A stretch of 64,000 nucleotides of DNA from Verrucomicrobiota bacterium (GTDB taxonomy: Bacteria; Verrucomicrobiota; Verrucomicrobiia; CAIQCK01): the NCBI GenBank assembly GCA_026397915.1, contig JAPLTX010000060.1:110210-174209 (forward strand). The letters are read 5' to 3'. The translations under genes and the position numbers were made by a program. Position 1 is the first letter of the stretch; each line of letters opens with the position of its first letter. A model generated the notes under the pieces. The model searched no databases. It had not been told where the DNA came from and saw only the letters and a list, made by a program, of their open reading frames with translations. Shown in pieces: positions 27,470 to 46,268 of the stretch.

Positions 27470-27529
27470 AGCTCGTCTTCTTGTCCTCACGTTTCGGTTT
27501 CCAGAAATCGTCACTGCGAACAGCCAGCC

Positions 27530-28888: not shown

Positions 28889-29593
28889 TCACTTGCGTGC
28901 CACTTTGCGGAAGCGGACGAAGTAGTTCTCGTTCATGAAGTCCCGCTCCTCGACCTTCTTGAAGCCCGCGGCCTCGATCTCCGCCGTGAACACCTCCTGT
29001 CCGGCGCGGACGTGCTTCACAATCCACTCCTTCGACTTGCCGGGGATGCGCTTGAACTCCACCAGCACCAGTTCGCCCTTCGGCCGCAACGCGCGGTGAA
29101 TGGACGCCATCGAGTCCTTCGCATGGTTGAAGTGGTGATAGACATCGCAGAGGAACACCACATCCGCGCAGCCTGCCGGCAACTCCACGGAGCGTTCCGT
29201 GCAGAGCGCCGTCTCGACGTTCGCGAAGCCGGCGTCCTTGGCGCGCTTGGCGATGTGCTCGATCAGCCGCTTCTCGATCTCCACGGCGATGACCTTGCCT
29301 TTCGGGCCGACGGCCTCGGCGAACATCATCGTGAACAACCCCGTGCCCGCGCCGATGTCGGCGACGACCGCGCCGGGTTTCACGGCGGCGGCTTTGAAGA
29401 TGTCCTGCCGCCGGTCGTAAGCTTCGCGGCCGGCTTTCTCGTAGCGTGCCGTCAACTGCTCGATGGTTGGCGGGGCGCTTTGCTTCGACGGCTGGCCCTT
29501 CGCGGTGGCGGACTGCTGGCTGAACGCGAGCGTCGCGGCGGCGAAGCAAAGCAGGAGGTTGAGCGTGGCGCGGAGAAGAGGCTTGAAGTTCAT
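28889..29593 (-). CDS. Class I SAM-dependent methyltransferase with N-terminal signal peptide
   Basis: VVADIGAGTG, VIAVEIE, DVVFLCDVYHH, LRPKGELVLVEF. The N-terminus MNFKPLLRATLNLLLCFAAATLAFS looks like a Sec signal. Confidence 0.9.
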   Translation of the reverse strand: MNFKPLLRATLNLLLCFAAATLAFSQQSATAKGQPSKQSAPPTIEQLTARYEKAGREAYDRRQDIFKAAAVKPGAVVADIGAGTGLFTMMFAEAVGPKGKVIAVEIEKRLIEHIAKRAKDAGFANVETALCTERSVELPAGCADVVFLCDVYHHFNHAKDSMASIHRALRPKGELVLVEFKRIPGKSKEWIVKHVRAGQEVFTAEIEAAGFKKVEERDFMNENYFVRFRKVARK

Positions 29594-29635
29594 GGCGCGG
29601 CATCGTAGCCGGACGGAAACGCCGGCGACAACTGC

Positions 29636-29672
29636 GATTTGCTCTTGCCTTGCCCGACGCGTGGGCGACTAT
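29636..29672 (+). promoter_or_regulatory. Promoter-like motif, copy 1
   Basis: GATTTGCTCTTGCCTTG-N11-GGCGACTAT (TTGCCT-N16-GACTAT), identical at 41352-41388. Confidence 0.6.
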
Positions 29673-29700
29673 CTCAGTCGTAATCATGCAACACGAATAC

Positions 29701-29847
29701 CCCCTCACCCTAGCCCTCTCCCTCGCAGCGGCGGAGAGGGAGAAGTTTCACGCGCCGCAGCGCGACTTGCTGAAAGGTGAACACTTTCAAGGCAGCGTGG
29801 ACGGTTTCCCTCTCCCCATCCGATGGGGAGAGGGTCAGGGTGAGGGG
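29701..29847. repeat. CCCCTCACCC...GGGTGAGGGG palindromic element, copy 1 (intergenic)
   Basis: Terminal arms CCCCTCACCCTAGCCCTCTCCC / GGGAGAGGGTCAGGGTGAGGGG, each with an internal CCCTCTCCC..GGGAGAGGG hairpin. Confidence 0.85.
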
Positions 29848-29901
29848 CCGCGGCGACTGAATAGTTGCGGCTTAGGGAATCCAAAGCATCCAATGCCTTG
29901 C

Positions 29902-32900
29902 ATGAAAATTTTTGCGTCCTTGCTGCTGTTCGCGTTTGCGAACTGTGCCGAAGCCGCGGACTGGCCGCAATGGCGCGGCAACGCCAACCGCACGGCGGAC
30001 ACGTCCGAGAAACTTCCCGCGCAGATGAGCCTGCGCTGGGTGCGCGAGTTTCCGGCGCGCGTGCCGGCGTGGGAGGATCCGCTGAACCAGGACTTGATGC
30101 CGTTCGACGCCGTCTTCGAGCCGGTGGTGATGGGCGACAGGATGTTCGTCGGGTTCAACGACGCCGACAAATTGGTCGCGCTGGACATTCACACGGGCCG
30201 GCAGCTCTGGGCGTTCTACGCCGACGGGCCGGTGCGGCTCGCGCCGGCTTGCTGGGAGGGCAGAGTCTATTTCGCCAGCGACGACGGCTGCCTCTATTGT
30301 GTGCGCGCTGACAACGGCGCGCTGGTGTGGAAATTCCGCGGCGGCCCCTCCAACCGCAAAGTGCTCGGCAACAGCCGCCTCATCTCCGCGTGGCCCGCGC
30401 GCGGCGGGCCGGTCATCCGCGACGGCGTGGTTTATTTCGCGGCGAGCATCTGGCCGTTCATGGGCACGTTCATCCACGCGCTCGATGCCGCGACCGGGCA
30501 GGTTGTCTGGGTCAACGACGGCACCGGTGCGCAGTTCGTCAAACAACCGCACAACGCGCCGGCGTTTGCCGGCGTCGCGCCGCAGGGCGCGCTCGTGGCG
30601 ACCGAGAAGTTCCTGCTCGTGCCGGGTGGCCGCTCCATTCCTGCGGCGTTCGACCGCGCGACTGGCGCGTTCCTCCACTTCCCCATCGCCGAGTCCGGCA
30701 AAGGCACGGGCGGCTCGACGGTGATGGCCAGCGAGAAGGAGTTCTTCGTCCACACCCGCGAGCGTGGCACGCGCGCCCACGATCTGGCGACGGGCAAGAA
30801 AACCATCTTCACCGTCAACGAGCCGGTGCTGGGCAAGACGCACGTCTATTGCGCCGCGAGCTGCTCGACGAACTTCGCCGCCCGCGCGGAAGCGGAGTTG
30901 AAACTGGAGACGGCGCGCCAGGCCCACCTCAAAGCGAAGAACGACCTCGCCGACGCGCAGGACGCGGCCGAGGCCAACGCCATCAAGCGCGCCGCCGCCG
31001 CGGTCAGTTCCGCCGAGAAGAAGGTCGAGCTTGCCGGAACGCTTGTGAGCCGCGCCCGACAGAACGCGCCGGATGGCGCCTCCGTCAAAGTCATCCAGGC
31101 GTGGAAGGCGGACAAATCGTTGCAGTGGGAAATCCCGGCCGACGGCTCCGGCGACCTCATCCGCGCCGCCGGCCGGCTCTACGCGGCCGGCTCAAACACC
31201 ATCGTCGCCATCGAAGTTCCGAAGCAGGGCGGCAAGCCCGCCATCGTCTGGTCGCAGCGCGTGCAGGGGACCGTGCGCCGGTTGCTCGCCGCCAACGGGA
31301 TGCTCTTCGCCGTGACGCTCGAAGGCCGCATCATGGCGTTCGGCGAAGGTGGAACGCGACCTCCGGGCGCGTTTCTGTCGAAAGCGAACGTGTCCAACAC
31401 GAACGCGTCCGGAGGCCGCGTTCCACCTGAACAAGCGCGCGAGATCATCGAGAAAACCGGCGCGCGCGAAGGCTGCGCGTTCGTGCTCGGCTTGGGCGAC
31501 GGCCAGTTGATCACGGCGCTGGCGACGGCCTCGAAGCTGCACCTCATCGGCGTGGATGCCGACGCCGCGAAAGTGGACCGCCTGCGACGGCAACTGGACG
31601 GCGCGGGCCTCTACGGCAAACGCGTGTCGCTGCTGGCGGCGCGGCCGGATGCGTTTGGCGCGCCGCCCTACATCGCCAGCCTCATCGTCGCTGATGACTC
31701 GCTGGCCCCGGCGGCGCTGCGCAAAGTTTATGAATCGCTGCGGCCCTACGGCGGTTCGCTCTGGATTGCCGGCGCGAAGAGCGTCGCCGTCGCCGGCCTG
31801 CCGAAGGCGAAAGTTGAAACCCTCGCCAACGCCGTGCGCATCGTGCGCGAAGGCGCGTTGCCGGGCGCGGCGGATTGGACCCACCAATACGGCGACATCG
31901 CCAACTCGGTGAAGTCCGACGATAGCGCGTTGAAGCTGCCAGTGGGCCTGCTGTGGTTTGGCGGCAACACGCACATGGACGTGCTGCCGCGCCACGGCCA
32001 CGGCCCGTCCGAGCAGGTCATTGGCGGCCGCTTGTTCATCGAAGGCATGGACTGCTTCAGCGCGCGCGACGTTTACACCGGCCGCGTGCTGTGGAAAACA
32101 ACCATTCCCGGCCTGAACACCGCCGGCATCTACCACGATAACACGCTGCTCGCGAATTCTCTGACCACGCTTTACAGCCAGCGCCATATCCCCGGCGCCA
32201 ACGCGCGCGGCGCGAACTTCGTCGCCACGGACGACAGGGTTTACATCGCCGTCGGCAACCACTGCGCCGTCCTCGACGCGGCGAGCGGCGCGATCCTCCG
32301 CGACATCCCGATGCCCGGCGGCGACTGGGGCTACATCGGCGTCTGCGGCGACGTGCTGCTCGGCGGTGCCGACTTCGCGCGCTTCAACAAACGCTTCCCG
32401 ACGCCCGGCCTCGACTTCCTCGCCGCCATCAGCGACTTCGCCGCCAGCCGCGGGCTGGTCGCGTTCGACCGCCACACCGGCGCGGTGCTCTGGCGGGCCG
32501 GCGCGCGGCACAGCTTCGTCCACAACGGCATCGTCGCCGGCGGCGGTCGCGTCTATTGCCTCGACCGCCTGCCGAAGAGCGCGGAACTCAAAGCCGCCGC
32601 GCGCGGCGAGAAAGTCGCGGCGAGCTACCGCATCGTCGCCCTCGACCTGCGCACGGGCAGGCCGCTGTGGGAAAACACCAACGGCGTCTTCGGCACGTGG
32701 CTGGCTTACTCGAAGGAGCGCGACCTCCTGCTCCAGGCCGGCGCGAGCGCCACCGACCGCTGGAAGGACGAGGCGAAGGAAGGCATGGCCGTCCTCCGCG
32801 CCAAAGATGGCACCGAGGTCTGGAAAAATCCGGGCCTCAAATACACCGGCCCGTGCATCCTCCACCACGACCTCATCATCACCACGCCGACCTCCTACAA

Positions 32901-33927
32901 ACAATCCGCCGGCGCCTTCAGCCTGCTCGACGGCAAGCCGCACCTCATCGCCAACCCGCTCACCGGCGAAGCCCAGCCCTGGCGCGTCTATCGCGCCTAC
33001 GGCTGCAACACGCCCGTCGCCTCCGAAAACGTGATGACCTTCCGCTCCGGCACCGCCGGCTTCTACGACCTGCAAACCCACGCCGGCACCGGCAACCTCG
33101 GCGGCTTCAAGAGCGGTTGCAGCGCCAACCTCATCGTCGCCAACGGCGTCCTCAACGCCCCCGACTACACCCGCACGTGCAGTTGCCCCTACCAGAACCA
33201 GACCTCCCTCGCCCTCGTCTCGATGCCGGAGGTGGAGATGTGGACCTGCAACCTCTCCGGTTTCGACGCGCCCGAGGGCAGGCGCATCGCGCGCATCGGC
33301 ATCAACCTCGGCGCGGCCGGCGACCGCATCGCGGACGACGGCACGCTCTGGCTCGAATACCCCTCCGCCGGCGGTATCTCCCCGCAACTGCCCGTCACCA
33401 TCACCGGCGACACCCGTAACATCTTCCGCCGGCACGCCAGCGCCGTCACCGGCAGCGGCCCCGCGTGGGTCGTCGCCTCCGGCCTGCGCGACATCGAGTC
33501 CATCGTCATCACCCCGCAGACACAGAAAGCCCCGCCGCCCTCCGCCCAGAAGGACGACGAGGAAGACGACAAAGCCGCCGCCAAGGGCAAGACCGCTGCC
33601 GCCCCCGCGCGGCCCGCCGAACCGGCCGCTGCGCCCGCCGCCGCCATTCCCCCGCTGCCGCCCGCCCGCTACACCGTGCGGCTCTACTTCATGGAACCGG
33701 ACGACATCGCGCCGGGCCAGCGCGTCTTCGACGTGCTCCTCCAAGGCCAGCCGGTCCTGAAGAACTTCGACATCGTCAGAGCCGCCGGCGCCGTCAACCG
33801 CGGCGTCGTGAAGGAATTCAAGAACGTCCAACTCGCCCCCCGGCTCGAAGTCCGCCTGCAAAAGTCAGCCGCCTCCACCCTCGGCCCCGCCCTCAGCGGC
33901 GTCGAGTTGGTGCTTGAGAAAAACTGA
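29902..33927 (+). CDS. Giant exported protein: PQQ-like beta-propeller + SAM-methyltransferase-like domain + second propeller with Cys motif + malectin-like domain
   Basis: Signal peptide then ADWPQWRG; repeated propeller blades (G..LW); VLGLGDG..GVDAD..LRPYGG; YGC..SGC..CSC; YTVRLYFMEP..RVFDVLLQG..FDI. Confidence 0.88.
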   Translation: MKIFASLLLFAFANCAEAADWPQWRGNANRTADTSEKLPAQMSLRWVREFPARVPAWEDPLNQDLMPFDAVFEPVVMGDRMFVGFNDADKLVALDIHTGRQLWAFYADGPVRLAPACWEGRVYFASDDGCLYCVRADNGALVWKFRGGPSNRKVLGNSRLISAWPARGGPVIRDGVVYFAASIWPFMGTFIHALDAATGQVVWVNDGTGAQFVKQPHNAPAFAGVAPQGALVATEKFLLVPGGRSIPAAFDRATGAFLHFPIAESGKGTGGSTVMASEKEFFVHTRERGTRAHDLATGKKTIFTVNEPVLGKTHVYCAASCSTNFAARAEAELKLETARQAHLKAKNDLADAQDAAEANAIKRAAAAVSSAEKKVELAGTLVSRARQNAPDGASVKVIQAWKADKSLQWEIPADGSGDLIRAAGRLYAAGSNTIVAIEVPKQGGKPAIVWSQRVQGTVRRLLAANGMLFAVTLEGRIMAFGEGGTRPPGAFLSKANVSNTNASGGRVPPEQAREIIEKTGAREGCAFVLGLGDGQLITALATASKLHLIGVDADAAKVDRLRRQLDGAGLYGKRVSLLAARPDAFGAPPYIASLIVADDSLAPAALRKVYESLRPYGGSLWIAGAKSVAVAGLPKAKVETLANAVRIVREGALPGAADWTHQYGDIANSVKSDDSALKLPVGLLWFGGNTHMDVLPRHGHGPSEQVIGGRLFIEGMDCFSARDVYTGRVLWKTTIPGLNTAGIYHDNTLLANSLTTLYSQRHIPGANARGANFVATDDRVYIAVGNHCAVLDAASGAILRDIPMPGGDWGYIGVCGDVLLGGADFARFNKRFPTPGLDFLAAISDFAASRGLVAFDRHTGAVLWRAGARHSFVHNGIVAGGGRVYCLDRLPKSAELKAAARGEKVAASYRIVALDLRTGRPLWENTNGVFGTWLAYSKERDLLLQAGASATDRWKDEAKEGMAVLRAKDGTEVWKNPGLKYTGPCILHHDLIITTPTSYKQSAGAFSLLDGKPHLIANPLTGEAQPWRVYRAYGCNTPVASENVMTFRSGTAGFYDLQTHAGTGNLGGFKSGCSANLIVANGVLNAPDYTRTCSCPYQNQTSLALVSMPEVEMWTCNLSGFDAPEGRRIARIGINLGAAGDRIADDGTLWLEYPSAGGISPQLPVTITGDTRNIFRRHASAVTGSGPAWVVASGLRDIESIVITPQTQKAPPPSAQKDDEEDDKAAAKGKTAAAPARPAEPAAAPAAAIPPLPPARYTVRLYFMEPDDIAPGQRVFDVLLQGQPVLKNFDIVRAAGAVNRGVVKEFKNVQLAPRLEVRLQKSAASTLGPALSGVELVLEKN
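31347..31428. repeat. REP doublet (REPIN-like) in frame inside the CDS
   Basis: 27-bp arms AGGTGGAACGCGACCTCCGGGCGCGTT / AACGCGTCCGGAGGCCGCGTTCCACCT (25/27), each with a GTGG foot and an AACGCG..CGCGTT hairpin. Confidence 0.85.
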
Positions 33928-33944
33928 ACGCGCCGCGCGCGCCT

Positions 33945-34577
33945 TCACGTCGCCCGGCAGCGCACCGGCGATCCCCACGGCCCCGTGCCCGCACGGGCCA
34001 GCGTCGCCACGCGAAACCAATACTCCTTGCCCGGCTCCAGTCCCGTCACCGTGCATTTGCGGCGCGTGAACGCTCCCACATACTTCCATCCCGCCTTCCC
34101 GTCCGGGTCCGTGCTCATCTCCACCAGATACGACGGCCTGCGCCGCCGCACGAGCGTCCACCTCAACAGAACACTGCCGGCGAGCAGACCCGGCAACGCC
34201 TTCAAACCATCCGGCGCGGGCAACAGCCCGATCCGCTTCTTCTCCGCCACCAGCTCCAGCCCCGCACTGACCAGCGCCGCGGCCACGCCCCCAGTCTGCG
34301 ACTCCACTCCCGCCCTCAACAGCCACGCCGCATGCCGCAACTCTCGCATCGCGTCGTTGCGCTTCAGCACCTGCGCCTTCAACGTCTTGCGCGCCGTCTC
34401 CACGGCGTCAATCAACGTGCGCGCCTCCTCCACCGCCCGTTGCAGCCGGGGCAGATGCTCCAGCTTCCCTGCCAGCGCCGCATCGCTGCTTGCGCCGCGC
34501 GCCAGCCGCTCCGCCACCCTCAACTGCTCACCCACCGGCTTGTCCTTGAAGGCCAACTTCGTTCTTGCGAGTTTCAT
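33945..34577 (-). CDS. Cytoplasmic fibronectin type III domain protein (helical N-terminus + FN3)
   Basis: PAPDGLKA..GSVLLRW..SYLVE..W..TVTGLEPGKEYWFRV..G.GPWG. Start set at MKLARTK. Confidence 0.8.
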   Translation of the reverse strand: MKLARTKLAFKDKPVGEQLRVAERLARGASSDAALAGKLEHLPRLQRAVEEARTLIDAVETARKTLKAQVLKRNDAMRELRHAAWLLRAGVESQTGGVAAALVSAGLELVAEKKRIGLLPAPDGLKALPGLLAGSVLLRWTLVRRRRPSYLVEMSTDPDGKAGWKYVGAFTRRKCTVTGLEPGKEYWFRVATLARAGTGPWGSPVRCRAT

Positions 34578-34717
34578 TCTCGTGCTCCGTTCATTTGCAA
34601 GCCGCCGGGCACCATCCGCCGACGGCAAACATCCTTCTGCAAAGACCATTTTCCATCCGGTGGATTGGTGAAAGCAAGGACGGAAAGTTCGTTTCCTTAC
34701 CAGCAGTAGGCCATTTC

Positions 34718-34975
34718 CAGACTGGAAAAGGCCTCCGGCAGACTGAAGAAGGCTCATGCGCGACTGGAATGAGCGGCCGTCAGACTGGAATCCGGCCCGA
34801 TCCGATTGATTTCGCCTCCTGCCGGGCTGGAGACAGCGGTTTCCAGCCTGCGGAATGCCTCCGCTCTCCTGCCGAATGCCTTCATATAGTAAGGAAACTA
34901 ACTTTCCTTACTAGCAACATGCTATTTCCAAACTAGAAACCAGCTATTTTCTTCAGGAAACCAGCAAAAACAGCC
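34718..34975. repeat. Degenerate 21-bp-period repeat tract containing an 11-bp perfect inverted repeat
   Basis: GACTG(G/A)A heads at 34718/34739/34760/34781; CTGC(G/C)GAATGCCT at 34848/34869; TAGTAAGGAAA-N5-TTTCCTTACTA at 34887-34913. Confidence 0.6.
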
Positions 34976-35057
34976 GGAAAGTGGGCAAAGCCAGGATGTT
35001 TTCCGCGCCTCACAACATGGAGATCAACCAAGCCGACTTGGAAGCCAGCCAACTCCA

Positions 35058-35106
35058 TCCGACGTCCGACTCCTTACGCCCTACGTCTCACGCATCGCGC
35101 TTCCCG
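35058..35106. repeat. Degenerate tandem heptamers
   Basis: TCCGACG TCCGACT CCTTACG CCCTACG TCTCACG CATCGCG CTTCCCG. Confidence 0.45.
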
Positions 35107-35173
35107 CCGCGCTGTCTCCGACTGCCGAAGCCGTCCCGCCCGTCCTCCGCCCCATTCCGCGTGCCGCACAACC

Positions 35174-35224
35174 TGACTCATAGTCCATAGACCTTTCGAC
35201 CGTTTTAGCATGGACTATCAGTCA
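35174..35224. promoter_or_regulatory. 15-bp inverted repeat containing two GACT-N3-AGTC (C-box-like) palindromes
   Basis: TGACTCATAGTCCAT...ATGGACTATCAGTCA; GACTCATAGTC at 35175 and GACTATCAGTC at 35213. Confidence 0.55.
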
Positions 35225-35306
35225 TGCCGAAACGTGACCCACCCTCGCCGCTCTTGGTCGGAATGTCCGTCATCACCGCGAAGCGCGCGGCTTGCGCTGT
35301 GAAGGT

Positions 35307-36107
35307 TCAGTCGCTGAAAACTTCCGAGCGATGATACGCAAGGAACTGCGGGTCTGGTTTCGCAAGCTTGCTGGGCAGTTGAATCGGTTTACCCTCGAAC
35401 GATACGAAATTCTTCTCCAGTGCTGGCTGCGGCAAGTAAGCTTTGAGCCTTTTGCTGAGGACAACCTTCAGCTTCTCGTCCAGCGTGATAAGCCCGGCGT
35501 CGAATGCGGCGTCGTGGATGGACGAGAGGCAAAGACCGTTTCGTGGGTTCAATCTCTGATCCGGAAAGTCACGCCACGGTTTGATATGGCTTGCAACGAG
35601 CAGGCGCGGCACGTTGATTCCGCTGATGCAGCAACGCACACCGTAAGCATTGAGAATCGCCTGACGGAAGAATTGTTGTCCGCGTCGCACCCGCACAGTC
35701 GCGTTGGATTCCGTCGGTCCTGTCGGCGGCGTTGGCTCAAGTCGGATTCTGTCGCGGTGAAGGAAATCCAGTTCCTTTGCTTCGTCTTTCGTAAAAAGGT
35801 CATGCAGCATTTCCTCGCTCTCCGGGCCAAGCGTCGCGAGTTCGGAGTGGAACTCTTCCCACAACGCGCGATCTAGTTTCGATACGTTCGGAAATCCACC
35901 TACGCCGCGCTCATGATGCACAGGATCAAAAGAAGCGAAATTGCAGAGCTTCATAACCAGAGCGTCTGGCGTGCGGCCGATCCTCTTCGCCACGTCAACG
36001 ATGATGGGATTCTTTTTGTCGAATTGTCCGAACGGCAGCTTGCAGTAGAGGTTCAGCGCGATTAGAAGTTGCTCGCGCGTCCAGTTGACTCTCGGGGCGT
36101 TAGCCAT
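35307..36107 (-). CDS. HNH endonuclease (predicted restriction endonuclease, N-terminal helical domain + HNH)
   Basis: WTREQL.IALNLYCKLPFG..RTPDALVMKL.NF; RRGQQFFRQAILNAYG.RCCISG..LVASHIKPW..NGLCL..HDAAFDAG. Confidence 0.92.
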   Translation of the reverse strand: MANAPRVNWTREQLLIALNLYCKLPFGQFDKKNPIIVDVAKRIGRTPDALVMKLCNFASFDPVHHERGVGGFPNVSKLDRALWEEFHSELATLGPESEEMLHDLFTKDEAKELDFLHRDRIRLEPTPPTGPTESNATVRVRRGQQFFRQAILNAYGVRCCISGINVPRLLVASHIKPWRDFPDQRLNPRNGLCLSSIHDAAFDAGLITLDEKLKVVLSKRLKAYLPQPALEKNFVSFEGKPIQLPSKLAKPDPQFLAYHRSEVFSD

Positions 36108-36196
36108 GAACGAAGCGTGCCACATTCAGACGCGTCTGCGAAGCTCGAAAGAGCTTGCCTTGCTCGCCATTCCTGGCCAGGTAGTTCTGTCGAGTT

Positions 36197-36430
36197 ATGG
36201 ATAAGACTTACACAATCAAACTCGACAGTGCCGATCTCGGCCAACTGCTTGACGGCTTGATAGCGCGCGCGGAGGCGTGGGAGAAAACAGCACACTACCA
36301 CCGAACGGGAGAAGATCCGAAAGACATTCTTGTGGAAGAGTGTGTTGACGCCGAGGAAGCCGAAACCATCGCCGACCATTACCGATCCATCATCGCCAAG
36401 ATTCAACAACAGCGGAAGGAGCAATCATGA
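36197..36430 (+). CDS. Hypothetical 77-aa acidic helical protein
   Basis: Clean ORF with protein-like composition; ATGA-coupled to the next ORF. Confidence 0.75.
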   Translation: MDKTYTIKLDSADLGQLLDGLIARAEAWEKTAHYHRTGEDPKDILVEECVDAEEAETIADHYRSIIAKIQQQRKEQS

Positions 36431-36729
36431 ACGGGGAAACCTCCCTCAACCTTCGGAACGGGTTCTGCATTTTCGAGAACGTGCTTTCGCAAGGCCCTAC
36501 ACCGATAGTCAGCGACGGCGAAAACAAGTATGTGGTTTTTGAGACCGAGCTGGAGGCGCAAAAAGAAATCGCTGATTACGCCATGACCCGCTTGCGGCAG
36601 TTTATTGATGGCGAGCGAGACTTCGACGACGCCATTGTCGTGGATGAATACGTGGTGCCCGTAACCGTGCATCCCGACGGCACGATCACAGATGAAGACG
36701 GCAGGTGTTTTGGACCATACGCAGAATGA
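36427..36729 (+). CDS. Hypothetical 100-aa acidic protein
   Basis: GGAG RBS, ATGA overlaps at both ends, protein-like composition. Confidence 0.75.
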   Translation: MNGETSLNLRNGFCIFENVLSQGPTPIVSDGENKYVVFETELEAQKEIADYAMTRLRQFIDGERDFDDAIVVDEYVVPVTVHPDGTITDEDGRCFGPYAE

Positions 36730-36974
36730 TGAAGCTGGCGGTGTTTGTGGACGGCTGTTTCTGGCATAGCTGTCCGAAGCACGGGACGAAGCCGGCGAAC
36801 AACGCGGCGTTCTGGCGGAAGAAACTGTCTGCGAACAAGGCGCGGGACCGGCGGGTGACGCGGACGCTGCGGCGGCTGGGCTGGCGGGTGGTGCGGATTT
36901 GGGAGCACGAGCTGGCGCGCAAGAATGAGACGCGCTGCGTGGAGAAGATACGGAGGAAACTTAGCCACGGATGA
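36726..36974 (+). pseudogene. vsr: Very short patch repair endonuclease, C-terminal half only
   Basis: KLAVFVDGCFWH.CP.H...FW..K...N..RD..V...L..LGWRV.RIWEHEL. The N-terminal MSRI..TKPE..PD segment is absent. Confidence 0.85.
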
Positions 36975-37028
36975 ACACAGATTCACACGGATGCGGCGAG
37001 GCTCACGCAAAGACGCGGAGACGCCAGG
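36963..37028. repeat. Half copy of a CCACGGATGAACACAGAT-type repeat
   Basis: AGCCACGGATGAACACAGATTCACACGGAT has 9-nt periodicity like the arms at 98-193. Confidence 0.5.
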
Positions 37029-37051
37029 CATCGAAAGCGGACGGTCGAGGA

Positions 37052-37261
37052 TCAGAAGCCGAAGTCAACCGGGGTCAGGCCGGACTGGCGGATGATGGAG
37101 CGGGTGGTGCCGGCGGGGATTTCCTTCTTCGGATGCGGCACGATGGCGATACGGCCGGTGGGGTTCTTGTATTTACAGTGGCTGCCTTTTTGCGAAACGA
37201 AGCCAAATCCGTGTTGCTGCAGCACACGGATGATTTCGGTCGAACTGAGCCGCCTAGGCAT
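37052..37261 (-). CDS. hicA: HicA-family toxin
   Basis: MPRRLSSTEIIRVLQQHGF..VSQKGSH.KY....VPHPKKEIPAGT.RSIIRQSGL. Confidence 0.92.
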   Translation of the reverse strand: MPRRLSSTEIIRVLQQHGFGFVSQKGSHCKYKNPTGRIAIVPHPKKEIPAGTTRSIIRQSGLTPVDFGF

Positions 37262-37463
37262 TGACCAGTTCCCGGCCGACGGTGGCCTCGCTGACCGGCG
37301 CAAAGGCGTCGGGAGTCTCGCCCTCGCAGTAAAGCTCGACCGCTTCCTTGAGGTTGCTCACAGCTTCCTCTTTGGTGTGGCCGAAGCTGGAGACATCCAC
37401 GTTGAGACATTGCGCCACGAAGAACTCGTCTTCCCGATACACACAGTAAGCAATCTCTTTCAC
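37254..37463 (-). CDS. hicB: HicB-family antitoxin (short, no C-terminal DNA-binding domain)
   Basis: VYREDEFFVAQC..VDVSSFGHTKEEAVSNLKEAVELY; overlaps the hicA start. Confidence 0.9.
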   Translation of the reverse strand: MKEIAYCVYREDEFFVAQCLNVDVSSFGHTKEEAVSNLKEAVELYCEGETPDAFAPVSEATVGRELVNA

Positions 37464-37556
37464 GAGGCGACCCTAACATGGCGTGTTCGCAAAGACAACC
37501 ACGCCGCTGAGTCGTTGTTGCAGGCGGGGCGGGGCGACGGCTAGAGTGCGGCTGCC

Positions 37557-40500
37557 ATGAGTTTTCATCTTCGAGCCTTTCTCGCCATCGCACTTTCCCT
37601 GCTCACACCGGCTTTGTTGGCGGCGGCCGACTGGCCGATGTGGCGCTGCGACGCGGGGCGGACGGCGGCCTCCAGCGAGACGCTGCCGCAGGAGCTGCAC
37701 TTGCAGTGGGTGCGGGAATATCCGGCGCTGAAGCCGGCGTTCTGGCAGGTGCGGCAGGAGCGGGTGCAGTTCGACCTCGGCTACGAGCCGGTGGTGATGG
37801 GGCGGACGATGTTCGTCGCGTCGTCGCGCAACGACAGTGTCACGGCGCTGGACGCGGAGACGGGCGCGGAGAAGTGGCGGTTCTACGCCGACGGCCCGGT
37901 GCGGTTCGCGCCGGTGGCCTGGGAGCGGAAGCTTTATTTTGTCTGCGACGACGGCTGTCTCTATTGCCTCGACGCGGCGGGCGGGAAGCTGCTCTGGAAG
38001 GTCCACGCCGTGCCCTCGAACCGCAAGGTGCTCGGCAACGGGCGGCTCATCTCGGTCTGGCCCGCGCGCGGCGGGCCGGTGCTCGACGGCGGGCGCGTGT
38101 TTTTCGCGGCGGGCGTCTGGCCGTTCGAGGGCATCTTTGTGCACGCGGTGGACGCGCGGACCGGCCGGTCGCTGTGGGTCAACGACAGCATGGGGTCGTT
38201 GTATCTGGTGCATCCACACAAGGCGATGTCGTTTGGCGGGCCGTCGCCGCAGGGCTATCTGCTGATGAACCGCGGGCGGCTGGTGGTGCCGAGCAGCCGT
38301 GCGTTTCCCGCGTTTCTCGATCCGGCGACGGGCAAGCTGCTGTCGTTCGACTTCGGCCACGGCCGCACGGACAGCGAGACGGGCGGATGGTTCCTGTCGA
38401 GTGACGCCGAAGGCCGGCTCTGCGTGGACCCGGCGATTGATTCGGAGATGCATGACGGCGGAATGCAGACCGTCGGGCAGATCGGGCTGCGCAGGAATCC
38501 CGGCGACAAGGTGAAAGAGACTGTCACGATCGGCAAGGAAACCTATCGCGTGATGGATGGCGTGGCGGGAGTGATCCGCGCCGGCTCGCGGGAGTTTCGG
38601 TTCCGCGACGGCTTCCCCGGTGTCGAGGGAACCATTCACACGATGCTCGCGGCGGACGGCCGGTTGTTCGTCGTGACGCGCGAGGGCCGCATTCATTGCT
38701 TCGGCGGCAAACAGGTCCAGCCCGTGCGTCACGCGGCGAAGGCGCGGCCGGCTGAGCCACGCCGGAACGATGCAGGCGCCGCCGCCCCTCACCCCGGCCC
38801 TCTCCCCGCTGACGCGGAGAGAGGGAGAATGCCTTCGTTGGGAGAACCGTCGAACCATTCGACGGGTTCGGCAACGACGGCGACAAGCTCCCCTCTCCCC
38901 CATCGGGGGAGAGGGCAGGGTGAGGGGGTGTCGGGCGGCAGGCAGGGCCAGGGTGAGGGGAGCCGACCGGAGACTGCCAAAGTATTGTTCAAGCTGAGCG
39001 GGCAGAGCGAAGGCTACGCGTTGGTGTTGGGCCTCGGCAACGGCAATCTCGCCGAAGCGCTGGCGACGCAACCGAAGCTGCGCGTCATCGCCGTGGATCG
39101 CGACGCGAAGAAGGTCGCGGTGTTCCGCCAGCGACTGGACGCGGCGGGACTTTATGGCGAGAAGATCACCGCGCACATCGGCGAGCCAGCGGCGTTCGGG
39201 TTGCCGCCTTACATGGCGAACCTGATCGTTGTCGAGGAACCCGCTGCGGCGGGAGAGAACTTCCTCGAAGCAGCCTTCGCGGCGCTGCGGCCTTACGGCG
39301 GCACGTTGTGCGTGAAGGTCGCGGAGCTGCCACGCGAGAAGGTCGTGAAGCTGGCGGGCGCGCAGTTGCGGCAGGAAGGCGGCTGGACGCTCGTGGTGCG
39401 GGCGGGGCCGTTGCCCGGCGCGGCGAACTACACCGGCCGCCCGAACTACGACGATCTCGTGCGCGCGCCGCTGGGCCTGCTGTGGTTCGGCGACACGTTC
39501 CATCATCACAAGCTCTTCTATAACGGCGTGACGGCGGAGTCGGGCCGCGGCCTACCCGCCTACGTCAAGGTCGAGGACGGCGTGGTGAGCTACATGGTCA
39601 CGGAGCCTTATGGCATGAAGCCGCCGAAGCTGAGCTATACGGACATGCTGAGGAAGTTCAACGAGCAGACGCACGCGGCGGCATTCAGCGATGTCTATAC
39701 GGGGCGGCTGCTGGAGCGCGGCCCGAAAGCTTCGCCCGCGGCCGCTTCCGCCGAGTCGCTGCCGCTCGCGCGCCGCAACCCGATCACCGGCCGCGAGGAG
39801 GCGCGAGAGTATATGAAGACCTACGGCTGCGACCTCGTCGGCGCGGACTACGGGAACTTCATCACGCTGCGCTCCGGCACGGGGGCGTTTTACGACAAGC
39901 GCAGCGAGAGTGGCACCGTCAACATCAGCGGCCTGCGCTCCGGCTGCCGCAACAACATGGTGCCGGCCTGCGGCGTCCTGAGCGTGCCGTCGTGGACCGG
40001 CAACTGCACCTGCAACTATCCGGTCTTCACCTCGCTCGCGCTGGTCTCGATGCCGGAGAGCTTCGAGCAATGGAGCGCGTGGGGCGGCGTGGCCGAGGAC
40101 GGGCCAATCCGGCGCGTCGGCATCAACTTCGGCGCGCCCGGCGACCGCATGACGCGCGACGGCACGCTCTGGCTCGATTGGCCCAGCGTGGGCGGCCCGT
40201 CGCCGGACGTGCGCGTGCAGGTCGCGCCCGCCGACGCGCAGCCGTTCTACCGGCACGCGCTCTGGATGAAGGGCGGCGAAGGCTGGCCGTGGGTGTTCGC
40301 GTCTGGCATCAAGGGCGCGCGCACCGTGCGCATCGAAACGATTGCCCGCGCGACCAACGCGCCCTCCGCGAACTTCAGCGCGCGCTGGACCGGCCAGATC
40401 GAGCCGCAGTTCAGCGAGGAATACACGTTCCACGCGCGCAGCGACGGACCGATGCACGTCTGGATAGACAACCGGCCATTGCTCGACAGCACGCTGAGGC

Positions 40501-41120
40501 CATTGCGCGACGGCCAGCGCGAGGCGTCGGCGAAGATCACGCTCGAGGCCGGCACGAAGCATGACCTGTTCGTGGATTACAAACACGCACCCGCCACCAA
40601 CTCCGCACCGTCTGCGTTTGCTGAGTTGAGTTGGAGCAGTCCGTCGGTGCCGAAGACCGTCATTCCGCCGGAGCGACTCCTGGCGCCCGACGGTCGTCGC
40701 GGCGGTCTGGCGGGCGTCTATTACAAAGCCGAGCGATCGTCCGGCGCTTACAGCAACGAGCGGACGAGCACCCCCGCGCTGTTCCAGCGCGACACGCAGG
40801 TCCGTTTCGAATGGGGCAGCGAACTGCCGGTGATTCTCAAGCCCCGCCCGCCGGTTCAACCGGCTGAGCGTGCCTACACGGTGCGGCTGATGTTCGCCGA
40901 GCCGGAGGAAATTCGCGCAGGCCAGCGCGTCTTCGACGTGAAGCTCCAGGGCCGCGAAGTTCTCCCGTCGCTCGACATCGTCAAGCAAGCCGGCGGCAGC
41001 AATCGCGGCATCGTCCGCGAGTTCCGCGGCGTGAAGGCCACCGACGCGTTGGAGATCGAGCTTGTCCCGCGCAGCGCCAAACCGCCGCTCATCTGCGGCG
41101 TCGAATTGATCGCCGAGTAG
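37557..41120 (+). CDS. Giant exported protein: PQQ-like propeller + SAM-methyltransferase-like domain + Cys motif + malectin-like domain with nested PA14
   Basis: Paralogue of 29902-33927 (ADWPMWR, GNGRLISVWPARGGP, VLGLGNG..AVDRD..LRPYGG, YGC..SGC..CTC, YTVRLMFAEP..RVFDV). PA14-like FSARWTGQIEP..YTF..SDG..VWID. Confidence 0.88.
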   Translation: MSFHLRAFLAIALSLLTPALLAAADWPMWRCDAGRTAASSETLPQELHLQWVREYPALKPAFWQVRQERVQFDLGYEPVVMGRTMFVASSRNDSVTALDAETGAEKWRFYADGPVRFAPVAWERKLYFVCDDGCLYCLDAAGGKLLWKVHAVPSNRKVLGNGRLISVWPARGGPVLDGGRVFFAAGVWPFEGIFVHAVDARTGRSLWVNDSMGSLYLVHPHKAMSFGGPSPQGYLLMNRGRLVVPSSRAFPAFLDPATGKLLSFDFGHGRTDSETGGWFLSSDAEGRLCVDPAIDSEMHDGGMQTVGQIGLRRNPGDKVKETVTIGKETYRVMDGVAGVIRAGSREFRFRDGFPGVEGTIHTMLAADGRLFVVTREGRIHCFGGKQVQPVRHAAKARPAEPRRNDAGAAAPHPGPLPADAERGRMPSLGEPSNHSTGSATTATSSPLPHRGRGQGEGVSGGRQGQGEGSRPETAKVLFKLSGQSEGYALVLGLGNGNLAEALATQPKLRVIAVDRDAKKVAVFRQRLDAAGLYGEKITAHIGEPAAFGLPPYMANLIVVEEPAAAGENFLEAAFAALRPYGGTLCVKVAELPREKVVKLAGAQLRQEGGWTLVVRAGPLPGAANYTGRPNYDDLVRAPLGLLWFGDTFHHHKLFYNGVTAESGRGLPAYVKVEDGVVSYMVTEPYGMKPPKLSYTDMLRKFNEQTHAAAFSDVYTGRLLERGPKASPAAASAESLPLARRNPITGREEAREYMKTYGCDLVGADYGNFITLRSGTGAFYDKRSESGTVNISGLRSGCRNNMVPACGVLSVPSWTGNCTCNYPVFTSLALVSMPESFEQWSAWGGVAEDGPIRRVGINFGAPGDRMTRDGTLWLDWPSVGGPSPDVRVQVAPADAQPFYRHALWMKGGEGWPWVFASGIKGARTVRIETIARATNAPSANFSARWTGQIEPQFSEEYTFHARSDGPMHVWIDNRPLLDSTLRPLRDGQREASAKITLEAGTKHDLFVDYKHAPATNSAPSAFAELSWSSPSVPKTVIPPERLLAPDGRRGGLAGVYYKAERSSGAYSNERTSTPALFQRDTQVRFEWGSELPVILKPRPPVQPAERAYTVRLMFAEPEEIRAGQRVFDVKLQGREVLPSLDIVKQAGGSNRGIVREFRGVKATDALEIELVPRSAKPPLICGVELIAE
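38785..38960. repeat. CCCCTCACCC...GGGTGAGGGG element, copy 2, in frame inside the CDS
   Basis: CCCCTCACCCCGGCCCTCTCCC (38785) ... GGGAGAGGGCAGGGTGAGGGG (to 38927), plus an extra right-arm fragment to 38960. The ORF stays open. Confidence 0.85.
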
Positions 41121-41169
41121 CCGTGTCGCTTTCTCGTCTGGCCAACGAAACAGTTATCTTCGGAGGGCT

Positions 41170-41310
41170 CCCCTCACCCTGGCCCTCTCCCCTCGCAAGC
41201 GAGGGGAGAGGGACGCCTGTCGCCGTCATGCACAGCAGATGGTTCGCCCGCTCGTGCGCAAGGAGTTTTTCCTCTCCCCGCGATAGTGGGGAGAGGGTCG
41301 GGGTGAGGGG
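41170..41310. repeat. CCCCTCACCC...GGGTGAGGGG element, copy 3 (intergenic)
   Basis: CCCCTCACCCTGGCCCTCTCCC ... GGGAGAGGGTCGGGGTGAGGGG, followed by CCGCGGC as in copy 1. Confidence 0.85.
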
Positions 41311-41351
41311 CCGCGGCAATTGAATCGTTTCGGGTTGGCAGGAATACCGTT

Positions 41352-41388
41352 GATTTGCTCTTGCCTTGGCCGGCCCGATGGCGACTAT
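41352..41388 (+). promoter_or_regulatory. Promoter-like motif, copy 2
   Basis: GATTTGCTCTTGCCTTG-N11-GGCGACTAT, 17 nt upstream of the GH106-like ATG. Confidence 0.6.
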
Positions 41389-41405
41389 GTCGGCGAGGCC
41401 TCAAT

Positions 41406-44400
41406 ATGAAAACTTCTGCATCTCTTCTCCTGCGCGCAACCGCCCTCTTCCTGCTCGCGTCCACGCTCCAAGCCGGAGCCGTGGACTCCACCGATGCGCG
41501 CAAACTCTTTGCCAAGCCGACGCGCGACTGCGCCAACGCGCCGCTCTGGGTCTGGAACGACATGATGACCGAGCGGGAGGTCGTCGAGACGATGCGCGAC
41601 CTCGCCGGCCAGCAGGTCAAGCAAGTCTTCGTCCATCCGCGGCCGGGCCTGATGACGCCGTATCTGTCGCCGGAATGGTTCCGGCTCTGGAAGGTCGCGC
41701 TGCGCGAGGCCGAGCGGCTCGACATGAACTGCTGGATTTACGACGAGAACTCCTATCCGTCGGGCTTTGCCGGCGGCTGGGTGCCGGAGTTGATGCCGGA
41801 ATCGCGCGGTCGCGGCCTGCACCTGCGCGAACACAAGCAACCGCCGCGGTGGAGCGACGATTACTTCGCGGTGTTCCAGTTGGCCAGCGACAAGGCCGTG
41901 AACGTGACCGCGAAGGCGCGCGCGGGCACGCTGCCGAAAGGGCGCTACCTCACCGCGGAGATCAAACGCGCGGAACCGCGGCCGTGGCACGGCGGGCGGA
42001 CTTACGTGGACCTGCTCTATCCCGGCGTCACCGAGAAGTTCCTCAACGTCACGCTCGAAGCGTATCGGCGCGAGATCGGCAGCCAGTTCGGCAAGCGCGT
42101 GCCCGGCTCGTTCACCGACGAACCGGAGATCCGGCCCGCCGGCGGGTTGCCGTGGACGGAGGATCTGCCGCAGCAGTTCCAGAAACGCTGGGGCTACGGG
42201 CTGATGGAAAACCTCGCCAGCCTCAGCCAGCCGGTCGGCGATTGGAAGAAGGTGCGGCACGATTTCTTCGCGACACTGCTCAGCCTCTTCATCGAGCGAT
42301 GGGCCAAGCCGTATTACGAGTATTGCGCGAAGAACGAGTTGGAGTTCACCGGCCACTACTGGGAGCACGACTGGCCGCGTTGCATCGGCGTGACCGACAA
42401 CATGGCAATGGCGGCGTGGCAGCAGCGGCCGGGCATAGACATCCTCATGAACCAGTATCGCGAGGACACGCACGCGCAGTTTGGCAACGTCCGCGCCTGC
42501 CGTGAGCTGTCCAGCATCGCCAACCAGCTCGGTCGCAAGCGCACGCTCGTGGAACTCTACGGCGCCGGCGGCTGGGATCTGCGGTTCGAGGACATGAAAC
42601 GCATCGGCGATTGGCTGGAGGTGCTTGGCGTCAACACGCTCGACGAGCATCTCTCCTACGCCACGCTCCGCGGCGCGCGCAAACGCGACCATCCGCAGTC
42701 GTTCTCGTATCACGAGCCGTGGTGGTCGGCGTATCACGTCTCGGCCGGCTACTTCGCGCGGCTGACAGCGGCGCTCACGCAGGGCGAGCAGATCAACCGC
42801 GTGCTGATCATCGAGCCGACAACCACCGCGTGGATGAACCAGAACGATGAAGCGCGGTTGAAGGACCTCGGCGACGCGTTCTTCAACCTGCTGATGCCGC
42901 TCGAAGCCGCGCAGGTGGAATACGACATCGGCTGCGAAGACGTGCTCGCCAACCACGGCTCCGTCAGCGGCGCGACGTTGCGCGTCGGCAAGCGGGACTA
43001 CACGACGGTCGTGCTGCCGCCGCTTGCCGAGAACCTCGACAGCAAGACCGTGGCGCTGCTCGACAACTACATGAAAGCCGGCGGCACAATCCTCTGCGCC
43101 GGTGAGCCGCCCGCCCGCGTGGACGGCGTGGTGTCGCCACGTGGCGCGGAGCTTGCGCGAAACGCGAAGTGGAAGAAGATCGAGCCAGCCGCACTACCGG
43201 AACTGCTGCGGAAGGCGACGGCCACTGACGGATTCGCCATCGGTCGCGCTGACGGCGACAAAGGCATCCTGTTCCACCACCGCCGCCAGTTCGACGACGG
43301 CGAGTTGCTCTTCCTCGTCAACACGAGCATCGAGTCGCCGTCGGCCGGCGTGATTGAGTCGCGCGCTCGCGGCGTCGAGCAATGGGACCTGCGCACCGGC
43401 AAGAGCGCGGCATATCACTTCGAGCCTCGTGACAATGGCGTTCGCGCGATATTCGCGCTGCCACCGTCGGGCAGCTTGCTGCTGTTCCTCTCAAAGAAAG
43501 CCTGCGCGCCCGCGCCGGTCGTTGAGGAGAAGGTCAAGCACATCGCCGCCGCCGGCCCGCCGCAAATCCGGCGCGTCGAGCCGAACGTGTTGACGCTCGA
43601 TGTCGTGGACATCACCGCCGGCGGCGAGACGCGAGCGGACGTCTATTTCTATCAGGCACAGCAGTTCGCGTTTCAGAAGAACGGCATGGACCGCAACCCG
43701 TGGGACAGCGCCGTGCAGTTCAAGGACGAGATCATCACGAAGAAGTTCCCGAAGGAGAGCGGCTTCGAGGCGAGCTACCGCTTCATCGTTGACGGCGCGG
43801 TGCCGAAGAACCTTGCCATCGTCATCGAGCGGCCCGACCTCTACGCCGTCACCTGCAACGGCCAGCCAGTGCGCGCGGCGAAAGGCGCGTGGTGGCTCGA
43901 CAAGGCGTTCGGGCGCATCTCCATCGCCCCGGCGGCGCGCGTCGGCGAGAACGTCGTCACCATCAAAGCATCGCCAATGACGATCTTCCACGAACTGGAG
44001 CCGGCCTACGTGCTCGGCGACTTCTCGCTCAAGCCGACAGCGAGAGGTTTCAACATTGCGCCGCCGCAGCCGCTGAGGCTCGGCCGCTGGAATGAACAAG
44101 GCGCGCCGTTCTTCAGCGCGGGTGTGGCGTATCGGCAGACGTTCAACGTGGCGTCGCCCGCCGGCCGCTACGCCGTGACGTTGCCGTCGTGGTATGGCAG
44201 CGTCGCGAAGGTGCTCGTCAACGGCAAGCTCGCCGGCCATATCGCCAGCCCGCCGTGGCGCTGCGACGTGAGCGGCAAGCTTAAGCGCGGCGCGAACTCC
44301 GTCGAGGTCATCGTCATCGGCACGCTCAAAAACACGCTCGGCCCGCATCACGGCAAACAGCCGCTCGGCAGCGCGTGGCCGCGGATGTTCCAGATCGGGC

Positions 44401-46159: not shown

Positions 46160-46268
46160 GTTCGCTTAATGTTTCCTGTTCTTGCCGCGGGATGAGCTTT
46201 GCGGGATACTGGTGGCGTCGGTGACGCTGAACGAATCTGTTGTTTCCAAACATCATCAGGAGGTGCCC

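Follow-up and report, generated by a model that had tools for sequence, protein, structure and literature searches.

Long and short subtypes of a bacterial family of exported-looking propeller proteins with a conserved four-cysteine module, encoded side by side in a Verrucomicrobiota genome

A stretch of 64,000 nucleotides from a Verrucomicrobiota bacterium (contig JAPLTX010000060.1 of assembly GCA_026397915.1; hereafter the window) encodes two proteins, here called A and B, that combine a beta-propeller of the PQQ (pyrroloquinoline quinone) type, a methyltransferase-fold domain, a module with four conserved cysteines (the Cys module) and a malectin-like unit. We found that A is the long and B the short, PA14-carrying subtype of one large family of exported proteins, which occurs mainly in the Planctomycetes-Verrucomicrobia-Chlamydiae (PVC) lineage. 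The recognizable parts are all of known domain kinds; their combination and the core module are undescribed in Pfam, NCBIfam, PDB and the searchable literature. A preliminary description of this DNA had mentioned that such an architecture had no known assigned function, and this is borne out: no curated family or solved structure covering the entire protein or the Cys module was found in Pfam, NCBIfam or PDB, and a literature search yielded no paper on the architecture, on the Cys module or on the annotation names. We tentatively read the family as an envelope-located protein that binds or cleaves glycans by means of the Cys module.

The open reading frames (ORFs) of A and B coincide exactly with the coordinates of the preliminary description (in the case of A a second possible ATG, at 29893, lies three codons upstream of the one used here), in a window with a G+C content of about 0.6-0.69. 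A BLASTP comparison of A and B gives four collinear blocks, far above chance, which means that the two are real paralogues, as had been proposed from the domain order shared by the two (~1340 and 1187 aa); only the qualification 'giant' is an overstatement. Both proteins start with a leader of the Sec-type form (i.e. a basic residue, a hydrophobic stretch and AxA followed by ADWP), in agreement with the signal peptides noted before. A heuristic census of full-length relatives (basic residue, hydrophobic core and small-x-small cleavage site) recovered a comparable leader in 223 out of 255 (87%) and a twin-arginine-like pattern in just 14 out of 255. Judged from these sequence features, A and B look Sec-exported. 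A scan of positions 29400-41500 for promoters and terminators yielded nothing above chance.

Full-length relatives of A number more than 120 (49-94% identity, mostly Verrucomicrobia) and those of B more than 100 (43-92% identity; Verrucomicrobia, Kiritimatiellae, Lentisphaerae and Planctomycetes). A profile built from the core of B (aa 612-852) was compared to 1.84 billion representatives. With a threshold of E<=1e-3 it matched 1429 clusters (50% identity), and with a threshold of E<=1e-10 it matched 885; the best-listed matches were mostly proteins of about 900-1900 aa, together with some shorter fragments. In an architecture census, hidden Markov models (HMMs) of seven segments were scanned over the retrieved proteins (representatives of at least 850 aa), and the same order of parts was found in 110/110 full-length representatives, namely N-propeller, methyltransferase-like domain, core, Cys module, malectin N-half and malectin C-half, with a few proteins lacking one end. 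A pattern scan of 185,579 species genomes (one genome per species) recovered 196 encoding stretches, which is a lower bound. The best 80 of the 196 are from metagenome-assembled genomes (MAGs) of the PVC lineage; the exceptions are two genomes labelled 'uncultured bacterium', an Omnitrophota MAG and a 'Klebsiella' MAG, the binning of which is probably wrong. The closest genome match is a groundwater Verrucomicrobiia MAG. With respect to the subtypes, the methyltransferase-like domain is followed by a complete set of blades in A and by a shortened one in B. The long and the short subtype occur side by side in three separate lineages (loci L010-13, L070 and L083/L084), which hints that they can work together. 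In a third, related family the order is reversed, the PQQ-type propeller coming after the methyltransferase-like domain, and there is neither Cys module nor malectin; the members of this family in a Kiritimatiellae MAG, a Kiritimatiellia MAG and a Verrucomicrobiales MAG adjoin members of the short subtype.

The most distinctive part of the family is the Cys module, which is about 105 aa in length and holds its cysteines in the contexts YGC, SGC and CxC, the four of B being equivalent to the four of A (Table 1). The four residues are invariant in 60/60 B-type and 71/71 A-type proteins, and all of them are kept in 374/376 proteins when both subfamilies and distant representatives are considered, so that their conservation in homologs, as claimed earlier, holds. 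Because only two proteins deviate, a search among the 376 for pairwise loss of cysteines, meant to infer the disulfide partners, was uninformative. The core also has a higher density of invariant Arg, Asp, Glu and Tyr than any other part of the protein. In B the invariant polar residues include R615, D632, D646, K652, D712, R739, E748, R750, R772, D780, R794 and E837, and the stretch in which the four cysteines lie, the best-conserved one of the protein, has as invariant residues R739, E748, R750, Y765, R772, Y779, D780, R794, Y821 and E837. The core has no Pfam match at E<=10 and, in a profile search, no PDB sequence match under E 1; likewise, the Cys module has no match in Pfam, NCBIfam or PDB sequences. 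The possibility that the module represents additional PQQ blades is unsupported by sequence, since an hhalign comparison with the N-propeller gives a probability <1%. The AlphaFold2 model of full-length B (60 homologs; mean predicted local distance difference test score, pLDDT, 81.7; predicted template-modelling score, pTM, 0.84) shows short strands over aa 639-831, followed by well-modelled beta domains, and the Cys module does not appear as an autonomous domain in this model. We infer that the four cysteines act as disulfides or as a Zn-type site; an Fe-S cluster would be unlikely for a protein that is exported by Sec.

Table 1. Coordinates of the features discussed (positions refer to the window unless a locus is given; aa, amino acids)
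Feature	Position	Strand	Residues and motifs	Support
Protein A	29902-33927	+	1341 aa from ATG at 29902	ORF and translation, Pfam
A signal peptide	29902-29955	+	aa 1-18, MKIFASLLLFAFANCAEA, then ADWP	sequence reading
A N-terminal PQQ/BamB-like propeller	29956-31416	+	aa 19-505	Pfam PQQ_2 9.3e-29; local N-propeller HMM aa 20-294, 452-487
A methyltransferase-fold domain	31432-31848	+	aa 511-649; VLGLGDG, GVD at beta-2 end, LRPYGG	Methyltransf_25 E 6.2e-4
A second propeller region	31849-32949	+	aa 650-1016	Pfam PQQ_2 5.5e-10 on segment
A Cys module	32950-33246	+	aa 1017-1115; C1035, C1073, C1093, C1095	local Cys-module HMM 6e-29
A malectin-like unit	33292-33924	+	N-half aa 1131-1209, low-complexity loop 1210-1253, C-half 1254-1341	Pfam Malectin 1.2e-11 on aa 1254-1310; local HMMs, both halves
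Protein B	37557-41120	+	1187 aa	ORF and translation, Pfam, AlphaFold2
B signal peptide	37557-37625	+	aa 1-23, MSFHLRAFLAIALSLLTPALLAA, then ADWP	sequence reading
B N-terminal PQQ/BamB-like propeller	37626-38753	+	aa 24-399	Pfam PQQ_2 9.9e-20; AlphaFold2; Foldseek
B low-complexity linker	38754-38963	+	aa 400-469	pLDDT 24-38 (disordered over aa 403-469)
B methyltransferase-fold domain	38964-39401	+	aa 470-615; VLGLGNG, VD514-R-D516, LPPY, LRPYGG	Methyltransf_25 7.8e-5
B core	39402-40112	+	aa 616-852: blade-like stretch 616-737, Cys module 738-852; C758, C797, C817, C819	
B malectin-like N-half	40113-40358	+	aa 853-934, GINFGAPGDR..DGTLW	pLDDT 85-97; kept with C-half in all architectures
B PA14	40374-40721	+	aa 940-1055, nested between malectin-like halves	Pfam PA14 2.1e-16
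B malectin-like C-half	40848-41117	+	aa 1098-1187	Pfam Malectin 1.5e-9
A/B BLASTP block 1			A20-260 / B25-264	54% identity, E 1.5e-80
A/B BLASTP block 2			A509-699 / B471-657	42% identity, E 1e-35
A/B BLASTP block 3			A1018-1216 / B741-939	43% identity, E 1e-39
A/B BLASTP block 4			A1250-1339 / B1098-1187	51% identity, E 2e-21
Third-family member	L024, 9763-12834	-		
Third-family member	L061, 4292-8248	-		
Third-family member	L067, 12540-15584	-		
Hairpin element, copy 1	29808-29860			
Hairpin element, copy 2	38777-38823			
Hairpin element, copy 3	41166-41215			
Hairpin element, copy 4	41271-41325			
fn3-containing ORF	33945-34757	-		
HNH_2 endonuclease	35307-36125	-		
Vsr/DUF559-like endonuclease fragment, truncated	36705-36974	+		
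HicA toxin	37052-37303	-		
DUF7387 small ORF	37254-37463	-	antitoxin position, overlaps HicA gene	

The beta-propeller that had been ascribed to both proteins is confirmed by Pfam PQQ_2 (PF13360), with 101.2 bits for A and 71.6 bits for B at a cut-off of 27.6. In the B model, 32 strands over aa 48-392 fit eight blades. The N-propeller of A contains an alanine- and charge-rich insertion (~aa 326-390), the sequence of which looks like a coiled coil. The presence of PQQ blades between the methyltransferase-like domain and the Cys module implies that A has a second propeller region. This region opens with the N-terminal motif DW..(W/Y)..D....S......PL.LLW and aligns with the N-propeller in hhalign at a probability of 86-90% and an E-value of about 1e-6. 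Several of its PQQ-type blades have no counterpart in B, in which the region is replaced by a short blade-like stretch (aa 616-737). The domain order that had been described as shared is thus indeed collinear, but incomplete in that it omitted these blades of A. Further conserved cysteines are found at ordinary blade positions (C137, invariant, and C381, 56/60, in B; C788, C886 and C985 in A). A Foldseek search with the full B model against PDB returned BamB, tetrathionate hydrolase and quinoprotein alcohol dehydrogenase (E about 1e-12), i.e. generic propellers only, and was uninformative on the core. Two specific assignments were rejected. The BamB equivalogs TIGR03300 and NF008351 score 44.9 and 40.8 in A and 36.4 and 24.1 in B (cut-offs 285.2 and 423), and the PQQ dehydrogenase models TIGR03075 and TIGR03074 score 38.6 and 12.5 in A and 29.1 and 18.1 in B (cut-offs 480 and 833). 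The database labels 'BamB' and 'PQQ-binding-like' that are attached to relatives mean only that PQQ-type blades are present.

The C-terminal part of both proteins had been described as a malectin-like domain. Pfam Malectin (PF11721) does score above its cut-off of 23 (45.3 bits in A and 38.4 bits in B), but it covers profile positions 74-129 of 163 only, that is the C-terminal half. The N-half, the 'INxGxxxD..G..W' start of which presumably resembles the start of a malectin domain, co-occurs with the C-half in almost all family members. In the relatives without PA14 the halves are contiguous in about a third of the cases, and elsewhere they are separated by loops of 10-50 aa or of about 180 aa; in 97 PA14-bearing relatives the gap is fixed at ~154 aa. 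Given the contiguity in about a third of the PA14-less relatives, we read the two halves as one putative beta-sandwich, about 170 aa in size, the central loop of which is a hot-spot for insertions and is occupied by PA14 in B and by a low-complexity loop in A. Of the two proteins only B has a PA14 domain (PF07691; 60.5 bits, cut-off 24), and this domain sits inside the malectin-like unit and is not separate from it. Its best PDB sequence match is the RsgI3 PA14 dyad (6qe7, 1.5e-35), followed by a C. clariflavum PA14 dyad (6qdi, 7.6e-27), which has been named RsgI4 (PMC6852018).

The genetic context of the pair is also suggestive of glycans. B is followed on the same strand by genes of the glycoside hydrolase (GH) 106-like, BNR/sialidase-like and MttB families, beyond which lie a GH141-like gene on the opposite strand and, further on, genes for beta-helix, GH123-like and CBM4_9 proteins. 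The gene order of the A/B locus is repeated in a contig of 92% identity (L001). Other family members are found together with GH2, a beta-helix protein and GH20 (L004), with three sulfatases and GH38 (L006), or with GH28, a beta-helix protein with CBM4_9 and an extracytoplasmic function (ECF) sigma factor (L008). The assertion that the pair lies beside a large region of carbohydrate-active enzymes (CAZymes) is therefore correct for the window and for L001, but it does not extend to the family, as no neighbour family is found in more than 15 of the 80 loci; the CAZyme setting is lineage-specific and not a family trait. A fixed 'system' with partner genes was considered as well and dropped, as neighbour clustering over the 80 loci and a Pfam census revealed no conserved operon partner.

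The reading that we favour, though with less than even confidence, is that the A/B family consists of envelope-located glycan-binding or glycan-cleaving proteins in which the Cys module is the working site. A glycan-directed role is suggested by the malectin-like unit, PA14 and some of the gene contexts. According to this proposal the protein would reside in the periplasm or at the cell surface and act on a glycan that is probably anionic. The malectin-like unit would hold the polymer, and the functional centre would be the invariant Arg-rich Cys module, which may serve for binding or catalyse a reaction of the lyase or hydrolase type; the loops of the module would be stabilized by the four cysteines in the form of two disulfides or a Zn-type site. 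The methyltransferase-fold domain, to which the N-propeller would be joined by the flexible linker, would most likely be a structural or ligand-docking pseudo-enzyme that performs no methyl transfer. Because the A/B pair heads the GH106/BNR/GH141 cluster, the substrate in this organism may be a rhamnose- or uronate-containing polysaccharide of plants or algae.

Several observations weigh against this proposal. At the level of the model, the three 10-residue blocks of B that bear the cysteines reach a pLDDT of just 56-58, and the isolated core (aa 612-852) remained unfolded in AlphaFold2 (20-sequence alignment; pLDDT 40, pTM 0.33), a failure that may stem from the shallow alignment or else from a dependence on the rest of the protein. 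At the level of the domains, the malectin N-half is unrecognized by Pfam, and splicing the N-half to the C-half did not lengthen the match. Moreover, sugar binding by the PA14 domains of RsgI is tied to a DcisD-N calcium triad, which is made up of a DcisD (or DcisN) pair on beta-5 and an Asn or Gln in calcium-binding loop 2 (PMC6852018). This triad is absent from B, which has D963-G964 and K1009 at those positions. In the 97 PA14 domains of the family, G, H, E, Y and Q prevail at the second position, with Asp outside the top five, and the loop position mostly shows Y, S, F, A or V. Since the triad is absent, the canonical PA14 sugar-binding mechanism is not conserved here, and the earlier statement that this domain binds carbohydrate is weakened. 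Finally, at the level of the genetic context, one locus (L002) is without any CAZyme, the neighbour clusters at the 80 loci are diverse (sulfatases 15, ABC ATPase 10, sigma-54 regulators 8 and Ser/Thr kinases 7), and the 100 nearest neighbours map to 167 Pfam families, none of which is dominant; sulfatases, the top neighbour (15/80), are common in these genomes anyway. In the window itself, B and the GH106-like gene are 285 bp apart, with two hairpin repeats in the gap, which makes it uncertain whether they are co-transcribed.

The alternative that comes next is that the proteins are envelope scaffolds or assembly factors, which bind the cell's own envelope glycans or proteins by means of their propellers and lectin-like domains and have a role in structure or biogenesis of the kind typical of PVC cell envelopes, not in the breakdown of nutrient glycans. 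We consider this unlikely, yet deserving of serious attention. It would account for the fact that about 50% identity is kept across phyla over more than 1100 aa, for the one or two copies per locus among the sampled loci and for the lack of a conserved catabolic neighbour, and it would fit the O-antigen/polysaccharide synthesis cluster that lies upstream in the window. The propeller is BamB-like in fold, but the BamB equivalog scores are far under their cut-offs. In addition, the recovery of at least 196 encoding stretches in 185,579 species genomes points to a patchy, accessory distribution, and glycoside hydrolases or sulfatases are present in several of the contexts.

The middle domain had been described as Rossmann-like, with a VLGLGxG motif I and an acidic VD. 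Both motifs are present as described, and the domain indeed has the class-I methyltransferase fold. Its profile matches S-adenosylmethionine (SAM) methyltransferases in PDB (3dlc, 2.6e-5; 2yqz, 6.4e-4; 3bus, 3.5e-3) over an alignment that spans motif I, the acidic residue of beta-2 and the LkpGG motif, and for aa 471-615 of B AlphaFold2 predicts, at a pLDDT of 85-95, the order beta1-alphaA-beta2-alphaB-beta3-beta4-alphaD-beta5-beta6-beta7, i.e. a seven-strand Rossmann-like fold with a beta6-beta7 hairpin. GxGxG and the acidic beta-2 end are intact in A as well as in B. However, in a motif census of 340 family members G492 is found in 96%, G494 in 48% (Asp or Glu in 34%) and G496 in 74%, with D/E at position 514 in 95% and at the beta-3 position in 68%, whereas the conservation of PPYxA and RPYGG, which are not SAM features, is 87-99%; in a 17-sequence alignment (A3), both of these and AGLYG show no or almost no variation. 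As judged from these sequences, the strongest constraint falls outside the SAM pocket, which together with the Sec export makes a non-catalytic role likelier, and the domain is probably a pseudo-enzyme that has lost a strict SAM-binding constraint. The nucleoside binding proposed earlier is weakened for the same reasons, namely the retention of the central Gly in only 48% of the members and an export route without obvious SAM supply; a periplasmic pool of SAM is not known. An active SAM-dependent methyltransferase, working on a glycan or other exported substrate presented by the propellers and lectin-like domains, is therefore highly improbable, despite the retained motifs and the profile matches. 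The Methyltransf_25 scores of 20.8 bits (A) and 23.7 bits (B) are under the Pfam cut-off of 27, as compared to 59.7 bits for a neighbouring gene, and a chain that is exported unfolded behind a Sec-type leader cannot bring SAM along. This neighbour (28889-29593, -) encodes a genuine class-I SAM methyltransferase that is divergent from A, and L001 has a similar gene in the same place.

We give slightly less weight still to the idea, modelled on clostridial anti-sigma factors of the RsgI type with their PA14 dyad, that the proteins are extracytoplasmic polysaccharide sensors that signal to a partner regulator. The RsgI3 and 6qdi dyads are the nearest structures to the PA14 of B, and some members have regulators nearby, namely sigma-54 response regulators at 8/80 loci, Ser/Thr kinases at 7/80 and the ECF sigma factor at L008. 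These regulators are infrequent neighbours, though, and regulator genes are abundant in such genomes; besides, there is neither a transmembrane segment nor an output domain, A and the majority of the family lack PA14, and the triad on which sugar binding by RsgI depends is missing. A PQQ-dependent (quinoprotein) sugar dehydrogenase might be suggested by the matches to PQQ and PQQ_2 repeats and, in Foldseek, to the quinohemoprotein alcohol dehydrogenase 1kv9, but it can hardly be entertained in view of the dehydrogenase scores given above and the fact that generic blades only are matched. The methyltransferase, sensor and PQQ-dehydrogenase readings are thus all less likely than those of a glycan-directed protein or an envelope scaffold.

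A number of other features of the window may be recorded. The region 5' of A (139-20326) is a surface polysaccharide/O-antigen synthesis cluster that encodes a Wzt-type ABC ATPase, a TylF-like methyltransferase, several GT4 glycosyltransferases, epimerases/dehydratases and a Wzy_C ligase-like protein. The MttB-family gene downstream of B (trimethylamine methyltransferase superfamily; 46182-47702, +; E 2.3e-81) lies inside the GH106-like/BNR/GH141 cluster and is kept in L001; it is an odd companion of glycoside hydrolases. The segment between A and B (33945-37463) forms an islet with a G+C content of 0.59, compared to about 0.68, and contains nuclease and toxin-antitoxin genes (Table 1). Because L001 carries different genes in the same gap (MazE/PIN, NOV_C and Vsr), the gap can be considered a variable hot-spot for such genes. 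A short hairpin element, CCTCTCCCC-loop-GGGGAGAGG followed by GTC(A/G)GGGTGAGGGGCCGCGGC, has four copies in the window: one 5' of A, two, oppositely oriented, in the gap that separates B from the GH106-like gene, and one inside the coding sequence of the disordered linker of B, where it may contribute to the low complexity. An exported-looking PQQ_2 propeller protein of 514 aa with an EF-hand calcium-binding motif is encoded at 57027-58571 (-); it was rejected as a member of the A/B family, as it has no methyltransferase-like or Cys-module match. Finally, a DUF1501 ORF (26318-27514, -) covers only profile positions 229-341 of 390 and possibly represents a truncated or frameshifted gene.

Among the major degraders of complex polysaccharides in soil, groundwater and ocean are Verrucomicrobia, Planctomycetes and Kiritimatiellae, and a good part of their exported proteome lacks annotation. 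Defining the Cys module would justify a new domain entry, with which the misleading labels 'BamB' and 'PQQ-binding-like' could be replaced, and the module may represent a new glycan-binding or glycan-cleaving activity if its function can be established. Should the pseudo-enzyme reading be true, then the A/B family provides a clear example of a methyltransferase fold that is re-used non-catalytically in an exported protein. A more far-reaching version of our proposal, which at present we regard as rather improbable, would be that of a new PVC-centred class of carbohydrate-active enzymes, with as active site a metal- or disulfide-dependent, Arg-rich four-Cys module that ends the second beta-rich region and is held by a methyltransferase-derived pseudo-enzyme, and with long and short subtypes paired on complex anionic polysaccharides.

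Parts of the architecture can be compared to well-known systems. The beta-propeller lyases and hydrolases of the polysaccharide lyase (PL) and GH families PL11, PL22, PL24/25, PL42 and GH145 are exported, act on anionic glycans by Arg/Tyr/His chemistry, are often fused to carbohydrate-binding modules (CBMs) and are encoded near CAZymes; the likeness is by analogy only, as no sequence or fold match of A or B to these families was obtained. The N-propellers of A and B and the extra blades of A are like the eight-bladed propellers of BamB and other PQQ_2 proteins (PF13360; PDB 4imm and 2yh3, and 6l8a for tetrathionate hydrolase) in fold and in PQQ_2 match. However, A and B are three to four times longer than BamB, their NCBIfam scores are about six- to ten-fold under the cut-offs, and they add methyltransferase-fold, Cys-module and malectin-like parts, and PA14 in the case of B, none of which is present in BamB. 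As to Malectin/CBM57 (PF11721), the C-terminal 90 aa of both proteins match above the cut-off, but the unit is interrupted by PA14 or low-complexity loops and its N-half is unrecognized. The PA14 domain of B has the strand pattern of the RsgI3 PA14 dyad of Clostridium thermocellum (6qe7; PMC6852018), but it is a single domain nested in another one, whereas RsgI3 has a tandem pair on a membrane anti-sigma factor; with its D-G...K it resembles the PA14-B module of RsgI3, which alone did not bind pectin (PMC6852018). The methyltransferase-fold domain, lastly, has the strand and helix order, the GxGxG of A and B, the beta-2 acid and, in LRPYGG, an LkpGG-like motif in common with the class-I SAM methyltransferases (Methyltransf_25/11; 3dlc, 2yqz and RebM, 3bus), but differs from them in its sub-cut-off scores, in the loss of the middle Gly in half of the family and in its position within an exported protein, where a beta-propeller region lies on either side of it.

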